In this document: positions 804 through 25,525 of the stretch, one piece after another
Position numbering within the stretch: position 1 is the stretch's first letter
Layout: each line of letters opens with the position of its first letter
Source of the DNA: Gracilinanus agilis
Lineage: Eukaryota
Direction: 5' to 3'
Assembly (NCBI RefSeq): GCF_016433145.1
Contig: NC_058133.1
Location: 348,421,388 to 348,485,387 of the forward strand
DNA: 64,000 nucleotides
Program-made: the position numbers and the translations under genes
The notes under the pieces: generated by a model
Told to the model about the DNA's origin: nothing
Databases searched by the model: none
The model's input: the letters and a program-made list of their open reading frames with translations, nothing else

Positions 804-3800
804 CTAGGAAATAAGAAGAATGTTCATTAATCATTTAATAAGCTCTGACCCTGATAGTTGTAGGCATGAAAGTGTAAGTCAGGATTTCTAAATCAGTTTT
901 ATATAAAATGGCACTTACCTAGCAGATGGATCTCATCTATAATGAGAATGGCAACTTTTTTAACATAGCTCCTGTTCTGCCAACTTCTGCTGATTCCATC
1001 CCACTTTTCTGGTGTAGTGACAATTAGGTCAGCTTGGGCAATGGATTTCATATCAGGAGTCACATCTCCTGTTAGCTCAATAACTCTGGAGAAAAATAAA
1101 AATGATTTTTAAAAATTTAAAACACAAAAAACACAGGAGGGGGGGAAGTGCATCAAGTGATAACATTCTTTTTTTGTTTGTTTGTGTGTTTTTTTTTAAT
1201 ATTTTTAAACCCTTAACTTCTGTGTATTAGTTCCTTGGTGGAAGAGTGGTAAGGGTAGGCAATGGGGGTCAAGTGACTTGCCCTGGGTCACACAGCTGGG
1301 AAGTGTCTGAGGCCAGATTTGAACCTAGGACCTCCCGTCTCTAGGCCTGGCTCTCAATCCACTGAGCTACCCAGCTGCCCCAAGTGATACATTCTTTATA
1401 AGCTGTCTGAAGAGTGTGAAATTAGTTTTGAAAAGATATGAAAGATAGCTATTTTATAACTAGGAACAAAGTTTTCTCAATTACTTAGTGGAGCTGTCAA
1501 ACTAAAACATAATGTAATTTTTGTTTTTTGATAGAATTTCTTTTTAGTCTGTCAATACCATACAATTACAAAGTCTTTAAATTGCTGTATAAAGTGTATT
1601 ATTTTCTGAAATGGAGTTGATTAACTTATTCTCACAGCTTCCATTTTACTTAGGTAACTATTTGGATAATTGGCTCATAGTTTTCTGTCTTCTAGTTGGC
1701 TATTTGTAGTCCCATAATATCTCTTCTATAAATGGAATGATCTATTATCCTTTCAACATGACCATTGTTTTCTGCATATCTAAGTTTCCTGCAGCTAATC
1801 TGTTTCCTTTAATGATCTGTAGAAAAAAAATCTCATTTGCCATGAGATCAAATAACAAGACACTGCAGATTATTCTTTATGCTATGTGCTGAGAATCTCT
1901 TTTTGCTCTATCCCCATTATAGGTATAGCCCAACTTTCCAATACACAGTATCAAAAGTTGGAATTGAATACAATTCAACATATAAGCTATTTTTTTCTTT
2001 CCAAAGATAAAAATGTTTTGAAGAAAGGTAGGAGAAGGAAAAGGAGCTGTAGACAATATAGAATACCTAGGGGTATACTTACTAAAACAAACCCAGCTAC
2101 TATATGAACACAATCTGCAACCATATCCCAAGGGCTATAAAACTATGTATATCTTTTGAACCAGCAATAGCACTACTTTGTCTGTATCTCAAAGAGATCA
2201 GAGATTGGGGAAAAGGACATACTTGCACAAAAATATTTTTAGCAGTTCTGAGGGCAGCTGAGTGGCCCAATGTATTGAGAGCCAGGCCTAGAGATAGAAG
2301 GTTCTGGGTTCAAATTTGGTCTCAGACACTTCCTAGTTGTGTGACCCTGGGCAAGTCACTTAACTCCCATTGCCTAGCCCTTACCATTCTTCTGCTTTGG
2401 AACCAATACAGAGTATTGATTCCAAGATGGAAAATAAGGGTTTAAAAATTCATATCTAAATTCATCCATGAATTTATTTATTGATTTATTTGTTCATGTG
2501 CTTGCTTGTTTATTTATTTATTTAGCAGCTCTTTCCATATGGCAAAGAACTGGAAACTTATAGGGTACCCATCAATTGGAGAATGGATGAACAAGTTGTG
2601 ATTTATAATGGAATAGTATTACACCCTAAGAAATAACAAAGACAAAATTGTGATATGGAATTATGAAGGTGACTTAGAAGGCTTGTAATTCAATGTGTTG
2701 AGGATATTTGGGAGGACTGGAGAAGTTTAAAACTCTGAGGTGAAGGGTTAAATTTGGTTGGGGGAGAAAGCAGGGAAAAAGATTCAAGGAAACAGACTTG
2801 AGGAAAAAAGCTAGAGCTAAAAGATGACTTAATCTGAAATAAGAGAATTCAGAGAGGATTTGAAGAAGAAAATGAAAAGCATAAGAAGTAGTAGCAAGAG
2901 AAGGACTTGAGCTAGAGGAGAAAAGAAGAGAAAGGAAAACAATAGAAGAAAAACTTTGGAGAAAATAAATTCTCACTCTTTACATGACAATGAAATACAT
3001 AAAGAACCTCAGAAAAATCAACCAAAAAATAAAAGAAACAATTAAACTTTAGCAAAGTTACAGGATACAAAATAAACATATAAATCATCAGCATTTCTAT
3101 TTACCAACAACAAAGTTCAACAACAATTTATTGAAAAGGAAATTCCACTTAAAATAACTGTAGACAATATAAAATATCTAAGACTACATACCAAGACAAA
3201 TCTAGCAACTATATGAACACAATTACAAAACACTTTTCACACAAATAAAGTCAGACCTAAACAATTGGAAAAATATTAATTGCTTATGAATAGACTGACC
3301 AATTTAGTAAAAATGACAATCTTACCAAAATTAATCTATCTATTCAGTGTCACACCAGACTAACCAAAAATTATTTCCCAGAACTAGAAAAAATATAGCA
3401 AAATTGGAATACTATTGCACCCTAAAAATGATTAAGGTCAAGAATATTAAGGGAACTAATGAAAAAAATATAAAGGAAGGAGGCTTAAAGTGTACCAAAT
3501 TTCAGACTAAATGACAAAGTGGTAATCCTCAAAATAATTTGGTACAGACTAAGAATAGAGTAATATTTCAATGGAACAGGTAAGGAAATCAACACATAGT
3601 AATTAATGACTATAGTAAACTAGTGCTCGAAAGCCCTGAAATCCAAGCTGTTGGGGGAAAAACTTACTATTTATCAAAAACTACTAGGAAAAATCGGAAA
3701 ACATGGCAGAAACTAAGCATGGATCAGTATCTCACATCATACTTTAAGATAAAGTGAAAATGGATACCTGATCTAGAATAGTGATTCCACAAACAAATTA

Positions 3801-6326
3801 GGGGCACATGGAAAAGTCTACCTATCAGATGTGTAGATAAAGGAAAAATTTATGACCAAATAAGACACAGAGAACATAAAAATTAATTTTGATTACATCA
3901 AATTTAAAAAGTTTTTGCACAGACAAAATCAATGTTATCAAGATTAGAGGAGAAACAACAAATTGGAGAAAAATTTTTACAGCAAGTATCTCTGACAAAG
4001 ATCTTATTTCTCAACTATATAGAGAACTGAGTCAAATTTCTAATAATACAAAGCATTGCATAATTGAGAAATGGTCAAAGGATATGAACAGGCAGTTCTC
4101 AAAAGAAGAAATTAAAACCAACCAAAGACATAGGAAAAAAATGCTCCAAATCACTAATGATTAAAGAAATATAAATTAAAACAACTCTGAGATACCAGCT
4201 TACACTTACCAGATGGGCTAACATGACCAAAAAAGGAAAATGATAAATATTGGAGGGGAATTGGAAAAACAGGACATAAATAAACTACTGGTAGGAACTA
4301 TAAATTGATACAATCATTTTGGAAGGCAATCTGAACCACATCCAAAAGGACATAAAACTACGCAAACTCTTTGAACTATCAATACCAGTACTGGGTATAT
4401 ATCTCAAAGAAATCAGAAATAAGGGAAAAGGACCTCCTTGCACAAAAATATTGTCAGCAGCTCTTTCTAGTGGCAAAGAACTGTAAGCTGATGGAGTATC
4501 CACGAATTGAGGAATGGATGAACAAGTTGTGATGATATATGGTTGTAATGGAATACTGCTATACCCCAAGACCTTGTTGGCAAAGCCATGGAATGCATTC
4601 ACAGCCTGCACTCAGGGAGCTGCTCTATTTCTCCTCTTCCCAGGACCAGAGGGCATTTTTTTGCATGCCCCACCCCTCTGTTCAGCTGCCCAAAGCAAGC
4701 ACTTTCTCCCTTAACTCTCAGATATTACCAGGGCTCACAGACAGTTTAAATTTGTCCTCTGGGCACTTGAACTAGGAAAAGGCTCTCCAATCCTGCCCTA
4801 AGAAATGAGGAACAGATGAGTCCAATAAAACCTGGAAAGACTTATATGAACTGATGCAAAGTAAAGTGAGCAGAACTAGGAGAACATTTATATACAGAAA
4901 AAGAAATACTGTAAATTGATCAACAGTGAAAGACTAAACTGTTATCAGCAAAACAAAGTCCAAAAATAACCCCAAGGGACTCATGACAAAAAAATGCTAT
5001 CCAAAGCCAAAGAAGGAACTGTTGAAATCTGATTGTAGATCAAAGCATGCCATCTTTCACTTTATTTCCTTCATGAGTTTTTTATTATATGTATGATATG
5101 TGTCTTTTGTCACAGCATGGGGAATGTGGAAATATGTATGGCATGAAATCACTGGTATTACTTATAAACAGACTACTTATTGCCTCAAAGGAGGTTGGGG
5201 TGGGGGGGGGGTCAAGATTCTGAATCACAAAATGTCAGAAAACAATTGCCAAAAAATTGTTTCTATATGTAATTGAAAAACAAAATAAATGAAGATTATA
5301 AGCAATTATAAAAAAACCCTAAAGGAAAAATAGTTGTGACAAAACATGCAAAATAAATTGGTAAGAGAAGATGAAATTTCAGCAAGAGAAGAGAAAGGTG
5401 GACTTGTTGATTAATATCTCAAAAGCAGTTTACCATAGCTATCCTGTTAAAGACACTAACAAGAAGAAGAACTGTGTATCTCATTTCCATTAAGTTTAGA
5501 GAGCCCAGAATGAGTTGTATATCTGTTCTGGTCATATGACTGCTATCTTAAGTTAAGAGTTCAGACTTTTTTCCTTCTAGAAGAGAAGGCAAAGGAGCAC
5601 AAAAAGAGCACCACACTACAGCTTATCTGTGACAATGAAATATTACTTAAACATACAAAAGAGCCTGTATGAAAACAAGAAAAGAAAGGATTTGAAGAGG
5701 CAGAGGTAAATTCTGACATGTTAGTAAGATGGAAGGTAGAAGAATGTCACACAGAAGAGGGACCATTGATTCTTCTAGATAATAGCCCCAAAGAGGTTTT
5801 TCTTTAAGAGGAAGCCACTAGAGGATATGAGGAAGAAGCAGCTGTTTGAACTTCAAGGAATGTTAAATAATATGGAGCCAGAAGATCCTCTAGTAAAGAT
5901 TAGAGGAAGAATAGAAAAGCAGGGATGATTTGTGATTTCCTGAATTTTTTTTAACAAAAAAATTTCTGCTGACATGATATCAGCAGAGAGATCTGATATC
6001 TTCTTCAGGAAGGTTTCCAAAATGTGACACAAAACCTCTATGGACTTGCCAAAATTGATGGTCAGACTACTCAAACCTGGGGCTGCAATGGACACAAATG
6101 ATGCAATGAGAAATAAACCACAAAGCACTGACAAGTATTACAAATTTGGGGGCAAGAAACTTTATGGCTACAAATAGCATTTTATCATTGCTGAAGTGTA
6201 AAAACCACTAAGTTTCTCCCCAAAACCAGTCCTATGTGTCTTCTCTATCTCACTTGGTGAATTCATCAGCTCCCATTAATTCAATCATCACCATCATGCA
6301 GATGTTCCTCAGAAGTGTGTGTGTGT

Positions 6327-23982: not shown

Positions 23983-25525
23983 TGATTTGGGGCAAACTAC
24001 ACACACAAGATGTATTGGGGCAAACTAAGTGGTATTTTGAGGTTCAGTGTTGCTGAAAGTCACAGAATGTTCTTTCCCTGAAAATTCCTAATCAAAAAAA
24101 GTATAAAGTGTATTCTAATTTAATGAAGATATTATCCATAAATAAATCAGTGTGTCTCTTCAATGCAAATTTCTAATCTGCAAAATGAGGAATTGGAATG
24201 AATAATCTCTAAAGCCCCCTTAAGCTCTAAAATGTATGGCTCTCTTTCCAGTTGGTCAATCACAATAAAACTCTTAAACTATATAGACACATTCTGACTT
24301 TCTGAATTAATCAGATTAAACATCATAATAAAAATGCCTGTGTTATTCCATCATGATTAGACAAATGATGATTTATATTTTAAATTTCAACTATATAATA
24401 AAAGGGAGGAGAAAAAGGTATAAAGATAGAAAATGCAATGTATCAATCAATGTATCAAGTTCCTTCTTCCTGTGCTAGTCTATAAATTACATGTCTAATA
24501 TGTGAATGGTTCTAGACTTTTACCTGCTTTTTTTGAATGAGAAAATACTCTGAATGATAAATATGATCATTTGTGGGATCTTCTACCTGTAACAAATAAA
24601 ATTAATATAGAAGGATATAATTAAAGATATTAGGGTTTTATTGTAAGGCATATTGATAATTTAAAAAAACCATGTGCCTGCTAAGATCTAATTCAAATGC
24701 CCCACCATGCTTTCCCCCTGGTTGCTTCATAGGATAGAGAACTTCCCAATCAAGTTCTGAGTCTTTATACCTCTGTCTATGTAATCACACTTCCTGCCAC
24801 CTGTATTACACAAGAGGAATCATGGGAAATGTAGTTTTCAAGTCCTCTAAACGTCCACAGGAAGTTTATATCATGGATCTCAATATTAAGACCCCCAAAT
24901 TTCCAATATCACATTCCTCCCTGAAGAGTGGCGAGAGACTGATCTCCCAAAGGATCACAGGGGGGAATGTAAAAATTGGAAGACCTTGTACCCCCTGAAA
25001 CTACATTACCCAAATTCCCTTTCACCATACCCATAATTCCTTAAGCTTTTTCTTATTGGACACTGGTTTTCGCGGGCGGTATTAAAATTTGGTTTGAGTA
25101 GTCACAGGGTTCTTCTTGGGACCAGAGGCTACGTGGTGAAGGGTGAGTTGGGACTCTTTCCTCACATTTCTCTAGCTTTCTAATTTTATATTAATAAATC
25201 CTTATAAATATCATACTTTGCAGGCACTGAATATTAATTTTAAAACTTACATACCCAAATCCACCAGGGTTCTCCAACTGTACCATGCACCTAGAGAAAA
25301 ATAAGGTCACTAAACAAAATATATATGTTATGGTAGACATACATAGGGATGGTTTAAGTATATAGTAAATTTTAAAAGGGAGGAAAAAAATCCCATTAAA
25401 TTTAGAAATCACATTGACTATTAAAAATGGTTTAAGTTTTAAAAATCAAGATCATTAATGTCCAAAATGTTTTGAGCACACTTTCAAGATATATATATCT
25501 TGAATATGTATATGTATTTATTTAC

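Follow-up and report, generated by a model that had tools for sequence, protein, structure and literature searches.

The question raised by this locus is whether retroviral DNA has made a new, exactly removed intron in a coding exon of a conserved mammalian gene. The window, that is, the whole stretch of 64,000 nucleotides of Gracilinanus agilis DNA that was analysed, carries on its minus strand 16 exons of ASCC3, a ribosome-quality-control helicase gene (PMC11880988), as determined by exon mapping and translation. The 16 exons encode 785 codons without a stop, and the translation matches protein P0002 (Gracilinanus agilis ASCC3 according to its source) at 100% over 785 residues; P0002 may derive from annotation of the same DNA, so its unbroken W-V-E-D-P is not independent. 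ASCC3 has one copy in the assembly, and the flank of the insert site was unique in the genome search. Over the 785 residues, the protein differs from that of Monodelphis at 1 position, Sarcophilus at 6, Sminthopsis at 6 and Macrotis (bilby) at 10. One exon, of 99 nt, is split by an insert into 36 and 63 nt, and we propose, with a probability of about 0.87, that the spliceosome likely excises the fusion of endogenous retrovirus (ERV) 3' ends in this exon exactly, as an intron of 668 nt.

The 5' half of the exon (36 nt, 25255..25290) and the 3' half (63 nt, 24524..24586), both placed on the minus strand by exon mapping, flank an insert of 664 bp (25251-24588, read on the gene strand), which begins TGTAA and finishes TTACA. 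Copy 1 of the target duplication (GGTA, 25252..25255, minus strand) is the source of the GT donor, and copy 2 (GGTA, 24584..24587, minus strand) gives the first G that completes the CAG acceptor. The candidate new intron between them (24587..25254, minus strand, GTATGT...TACAG, GT...AG, phase 0) consists of LTR-derived sequence plus 4 duplicated exon bases, 668 nt in all, with no remnant of a host intron. Unspliced, the frame read from the 5' exon half meets a stop 4 codons into the insert, while removal of the intron on paper gives W-W-I-W-V-E-D-P and restores the conserved protein exactly. A sequence-only reading of the same DNA had described the 664-bp insert with its TG...CA ends and a GGTA on either side, splice sites made of the duplication and the LTR ends, and the return of W-V-E-D-P on deletion of the element, all of which we found in the gene-strand sequence. 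It had also given a terminal inverted repeat, TGTAA/TTACA, which is present, but at 5 bp it was measured too short: the inverted match covers 17 of 21 positions, because both ends are U5 ends of related LTRs.

The earlier identification as a solo LTR does not hold, as the insert contains two different LTRs in opposite orientation, together with two purine tracts and two internal-region ends. It consists of two joined ERV 3' ends whose U5 ends both face outward, and each brings its polypurine tract along with a short internal piece. Insert positions 1-284 are an LTR of family A (284 bp, 24968..25251, plus strand), antisense to the gene with its U5 end toward the donor, followed by the family A polypurine tract and internal-region end (24948..24967, plus strand); a 13-nt palindromic microhomology marks the A/B join (24935..24947); then come the family B internal-region end and polypurine tract (24914..24934, minus strand) and, at insert positions 339-664, the family B LTR (326 bp, 24588..24913, minus strand), sense to the gene. 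A DNA transposon with terminal inverted repeats, or a MITE, was also rejected, since the halves belong to separate LTR families and the inverted ends are related U5 ends. TATA-like motifs lie at window positions 24764-24771 (minus strand) and in LTR A (plus strand), and because those of both LTRs point away from the fusion, the candidate intron could act as a divergent promoter within ASCC3.

The two families were characterized in the genome of the same species. A search with the whole insert gave 5361 first-look candidates, and the 40 best other scored matches cover the 3' half only, starting at insert position 301-343 with 87-93% identity; when the 5' half was used as query, the matches belonged to a separate family and were 76-88% identical (best ~40 scored). 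As about 40 of the 1353-5361 candidates were scored in each search, a near-identical young parent could be missed. Duplications of 4 bp were seen at 8 of 14 LTR-only B loci and, as a lower bound set by crude end finding, at least 2 of 13 LTR-only A loci, and also around one A provirus and one B provirus. Elements flanked by paired B LTRs measure about 4.2, 4.8 and 11.4 kb; in them a primer-binding-site (PBS)-like tract follows the first LTR, and a purine tract precedes the second. Paired A LTRs, about 9 kb apart, enclose gag/pol fragments on the strand opposite to the gene-strand match. The A proviruses L068 and L069 have Pfam matches to Gag_p30, RVT_1, RNase_H, Integrase_H2C2 and MLVIN_C, and the PBS-like tract of family A lies beyond the LTR end that faces the donor in the ASCC3 insert. 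These PBS-like tracts, purine tracts and gag/pol matches fix the orientations of both LTRs. The PBS-like tracts resemble tRNA-Arg, a possible primer tRNA.

Since its paired LTRs enclose gamma-type gag and pol, family A is, judged by these matches, a gamma-like class I ERV. No pol was seen in family B, whose internal region is about 4 kb and is 67-83% like that of A in short stretches, and B looks like a non-autonomous relative of A. The 4-bp duplication, a PBS after the 5' LTR and a purine tract before the 3' LTR were all found, as is usual for class I ERVs. Thus the earlier attribution to a class I ERV is upheld by the LTR families and by the gamma-type gag/pol of the A proviruses, the integrase-type 4-bp target duplication by the GGTA here and by other A and B loci, and the search for further genomic copies, whose lack would have counted against that attribution, returned many LTR copies of both halves.

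Several other loci of these families deserve mention in their own right. Two very short two-LTR elements, one of family B (L004:1038-1861, 824 bp, 4-bp duplication) and one of family A (L032:681-1810, about 1.1 kb), resemble miniature deleted proviruses. At G000:C1:504013200-504013767 and G000:C50624:2041-2608, two family A LTRs form an inverted pair in which the U5 ends point towards each other across about 25 bp, a geometry opposite to that of the ASCC3 insert. One locus (L040) with an antisense A and a B-like LTR 700 bp on was considered as a second fusion and rejected, as its flanks do not match. Non-exhaustive pattern searches for GGTR-flanked copies gave one extra match each, at L081 and L084, neither of which was recognized as exonic. 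At the right end of the family B LTR of L084, a G is followed by 13 nt ending in CAG and then GTAAGT, a layout like a tiny cassette exon that may be due to chance.

None of the 40 other scored matches spans the A/B junction, and on sequence grounds the ASCC3 insert is a one-off fusion of two different gamma-like ERV 3' ends. The 13-nt junction motif occurs in all 11 A copies and in 14 of the 15 B copies that keep internal sequence; it is a palindrome whose 2-nt centre is flipped between the families, so that B sense equals A antisense there. In both families the palindrome lies about 20 nt upstream of the purine tract (own-genome loci L036 and L002), and it may be a pause or structural signal in reverse transcription. 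We lean towards the fusion having arisen before integration, a one-step integration being simplest because a clean duplication lies on both sides of the unit. In such a scheme, A and B RNAs would be co-packaged and synthesis of two nascent minus-strand cDNAs would halt for a time at the palindrome, which lies just upstream of the polypurine tract; their complementary 3' ends would then prime on each other to give a short duplex with two U5 ends, which integrase would insert in one step at GGTA. Retroviral integrases carry out concerted integration in vitro with U5-only substrates, and the MLV duplication is 4 bp (PMC3790719).

There are less probable alternatives that still carry weight: an antisense A element may have been there first, with B later taking the place of its right part by microhomology repair or gene conversion, or else the assembly may lack an existing composite master. 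The A half is about 6% from its family and the B half about 3%, which slightly favours replacement, but this gap may be explained by fewer close A copies, and a replacement must end exactly at the terminal CA of B beside the duplication with only about 5 nt of homology. As for the master, a second composite was not found among the roughly 40 best scored matches per search.

The age of the insert and the state of ASCC3 bear on whether the gene works with the insert in place. Compared with the nearest copies among the ~40 best scored per search, the insert differs by 5.9% in its B half and 10% in its A half, and three-way estimates place about 3% (B) and 6% (A) on its own branches. At a neutral rate of 2-4 x 10^-9 per site per year, branches of about 3-6% suggest that the insert is some 8-30 million years old. 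When the coding sequence was allowed to decay neutrally in simulation, about 17, 33 and 49 residue changes accrued at 1, 2 and 3%, with probabilities of 0.12, 0.019 and 0.0015 that neither a stop nor a frameshift arises (at an assumed indel rate). With 785 codons intact and a single difference from Monodelphis against the 33-49 or so expected at 2-3%, selection appears to have continued to act on ASCC3, provided that its insert is not much younger than the divergence suggests; a young parent beyond the ~40 best candidates scored per search would weaken both the age and the selection argument. The exact splicing claimed by the sequence-only reading gains support from this apparent purifying selection, although of an indirect kind: precise removal is likely because ASCC3 is single-copy, intact and conserved despite the divergence of the insert.

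The same observations make it very unlikely that we are looking at a null or weak allele, recent or rare, whose working counterpart, with an unbroken exon, is absent from the assembly. A haploid assembly hides a second allele, the close-copy searches scored only their best 40 or so candidates, and contigs of runs X3 and X4 hold LTR-family sequence with neither a spliced junction nor cover of the 36-nt exon; these contigs, like those of X2 and X11, were compared over 24588-25500, a range that excludes the 3' exon half, and none of the runs is recorded as RNA. In run X2 (organism B), ends of the A and B LTRs are present and the 36-nt exon has some coverage, and none of the pieces listed bridges exon and element; at best this hints weakly at an empty site. 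X11 has two short chance-like pieces. Against a null allele stand the 5.9% and 10% distances with their private branches, the 785 undecayed codons, the flank found only once and the prior chance of exact spliceability. For a TG...CA element with a 4-bp duplication, exact GT...AG removal needs a GGTN target, which is available at 22 of 2352 coding positions of the window (~1%), so that such a fit is unlikely for a random null allele. We suggest instead that the allele survived since this rare fit kept ASCC3 working.

The splice signals are comparable with those of the native introns of the gene. The candidate donor, TGG|GTATGTAA, pairs with the U1 of this genome at 7 of 11 positions with a duplex energy of -8.1 kcal/mol, while the 15 native ASCC3 donors range from -6.0 to -11.6 kcal/mol, 4 of them weaker than the candidate (duplex energy is a crude donor score). 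The acceptor has 12 pyrimidines in 18 positions (native range 10-17), and no other AG lies within 93 nt of it, the longest such zone of 16 and in accordance with the AG-free tract reported before. The U5 end of LTR B provides this tract, the branch-like motifs and the terminal CA of the candidate intron; as the last 85 nt are AG-free in 23 of 29 B copies, the acceptor signals came with the LTR. The branch candidate proposed earlier, at about -34, is not the only one: there are several branch-like motifs (A at -58, -44, -35, -16 and -11). We predict that the spliceosome would use G|GTATGT, made of the duplication and the LTR start, as donor, and the first AG, made of the LTR-end CA and the G of the duplication, as acceptor.

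The earlier list of splice sites was right for donor and acceptor but missed two elements within the intron, a competing donor GTAAGT that starts 4 nt into it (25245..25250, minus strand) and the AATAAA signal that LTR B carries, some 50 nt ahead of the acceptor (24637..24642, minus strand). Together with exonic AGs at +4 and +7 after the acceptor, these sites could feed a gene that tolerates mostly imprecise splicing, premature polyadenylation or skipping of the 36-nt or 63-nt half (both multiples of 3, hence in-frame), a situation we regard as most improbable. The +4 donor, a perfect GTAAGT, pairs with U1 at 8 of 11 positions, yet its duplex is weaker (-5.4). Moreover, of five alternative site pairs, three shift the frame, one gives an in-frame stop and one turns E-D into Y; where a long AG-free tract precedes, the acceptor is normally the first AG to follow it; and both exon halves are identical in protein to those of dasyurids, as expected if both are translated. 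A minor leak to alternative sites is plausibly compatible with the exact intron.

An assembly artefact, in which repeat fragments were joined into the exon, is highly improbable: the A/B junction is unique, spanned by none of the 40 scored matches, and N stretches lie nearby in the assembly, but mis-joins are not expected to leave exact LTR termini, a perfect duplication of 4 bp, a join at a motif common to the two families and divergence from every scored copy, and one run, which may be the source sample, contains 0.81 of the words of the window. The next exon of ASCC3 should lie just past window position 1, in a region that reads as about 14.7 kb of N (L079 whole; L080:5258-10000), and our exon check ends at position 409. 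P0002 lacks 41 residues relative to Monodelphis at this N stretch, and three further N-terminal stretches, probably a gap in the model rather than a loss in the gene. Distant matches to the ASCC3 Sec63 exon occur elsewhere in the genome (37% at L071, probably a paralogous helicase, and 35% at L072), one of them about 0.77 Mb away on the same contig as ASCC3.

To read the ancestral state, 41 residues of a bird protein were searched against proteins of 22-72 residues, which gave three candidates, all genomic ORFs. Each runs from non-ASCC3 residues through the whole 33-residue exon, with W-V-E-D-P unbroken, into non-ASCC3 residues again, as expected if it is genomic read-through of one unbroken exon with intron-like flanks, and the single unbroken 99-nt exon predicted earlier for the ancestor agrees with all three. 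Judged from the residues alone, two are of bird/lizard type and one is of eutherian type. Among 120 ASCC3 homologues, the motif pattern is missing in 31, of which a minority was inspected individually. As both outgroup types are unbroken and all 668 nt are LTR plus 4 duplicated bases, the simple reading is that the interruption represents an intron gain. That the LTRs filled or replaced an older intron already present at this codon boundary can hardly be credited, given three unbroken outgroup-type ORFs and no host remnant in the 668 nt, even with marsupial genomic DNA lying outside this bird/reptile-like and eutherian-like comparison.

We consider it rather probable that this is a mammalian intron from retroviral integration, in which an aberrant two-U5 DNA entered GGTA in a conserved exon and would have been a constitutive intron at once. 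If so, a general rule would follow, in which a class I ERV LTR (TGT...CA, 4-bp duplication) landing on a coding GGTR yields G|GTRTGT...CAG, and ERV-made introns would then be findable across mammals by a simple screen. The gain in ASCC3, datable and with a legible mechanism, would demonstrate that exact introns can arise from ERVs in mammals, and it would offer a natural test of how a new intron fares with a rival donor, a poly(A) signal of its own and a 36-nt exon that is itself new. In addition, the insert could serve as a presence/absence marker for opossum phylogeny, and the two-U5 fusion would be the fossil of an unusual reverse-transcription product.

Among known systems, introners are the closest. 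In the introner survey of Gozashti et al. 2025, LTR elements are about 12% of the classified families, Panicum virgatum has introns formed by solo LTRs, vertebrates are cited as apparently lacking recent gains of introns, and the supplement (files 13-14 excepted) has 0 families for Gracilinanus agilis, Monodelphis and Sarcophilus (PMC12130899). Both introners and the ASCC3 insert are exonic transposable elements spliced out through encoded or co-opted splice sites (splicing being predicted here), and, in sequence, the insert has like them splice sites through which an exonic element can be cut out exactly. Introners form families of related introns, whereas the ASCC3 insert is a single event, in a mammal, and none of the 40 other scored matches in our non-exhaustive search repeats the fusion; solo-LTR introners have one LTR where this insert is an inverted fusion of two. 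The transposon-insertion model of Yenerall and Zhou 2012 likewise has the target duplication supply the splice sites and leaves the coding sequence unchanged, and its table includes Oryza, Drosophila, Oikopleura and Zea and no mammals (PMC3443670). Duplication-supplied splice sites and an unchanged coding sequence are common to the model and to ASCC3, but the target of the model is AGGT and that of ASCC3 is GGTA, so that the acceptor needs the LTR's own CA.

In vertebrates, new introns of transposon-like origin occur in slc26a2 of notothenioids; in the accessible text of that paper they are not reported as ERVs, and the term 'target site' is absent from its main text (PMC12357937). This case resembles ASCC3 in being a recent gain of introns from transposable elements in a conserved vertebrate coding gene, the one in a teleost and the other in a mammal. 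Conserved mammalian genes have been described as showing intron loss and no apparent gain, with many gains in retrogenes or poorly conserved regions (PMC3488318). The RNF113B retrogene gained an intron by intronization of exon sequence (PMC3002245), and a 2025 survey, which was not designed to detect origins from transposable elements, lists 342 intron gains in the human lineage, with intronization of exon sequence in three cases (PMC12124190). As far as the accessible text of these sources goes, none of the RNF113B or human-lineage gains is shown to be an ERV with a target duplication, unlike the ASCC3 insert. In the open-access literature, as distinct from subscription papers, we found no mammalian coding exon in which an ERV had made an intron, nor anything on the ASCC3 locus. 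The SRY intron of dasyurids is reportedly a marsupial insertion (O'Neill 1998). RNF113B, the human-lineage gains and SRY are like ASCC3 in being new introns in mammals, that of SRY in a marsupial. With MLV and gamma-like ERVs the insert shares the 4-bp duplication, but normal proviruses have one U3 and one U5 end and LTRs in direct repeat, whereas the ASCC3 integrant has two U5 ends from two families. Set beside these systems, ASCC3 likely represents a single, probably functional, ERV-made intron in a conserved mammalian gene, formed through a two-U5 fusion.
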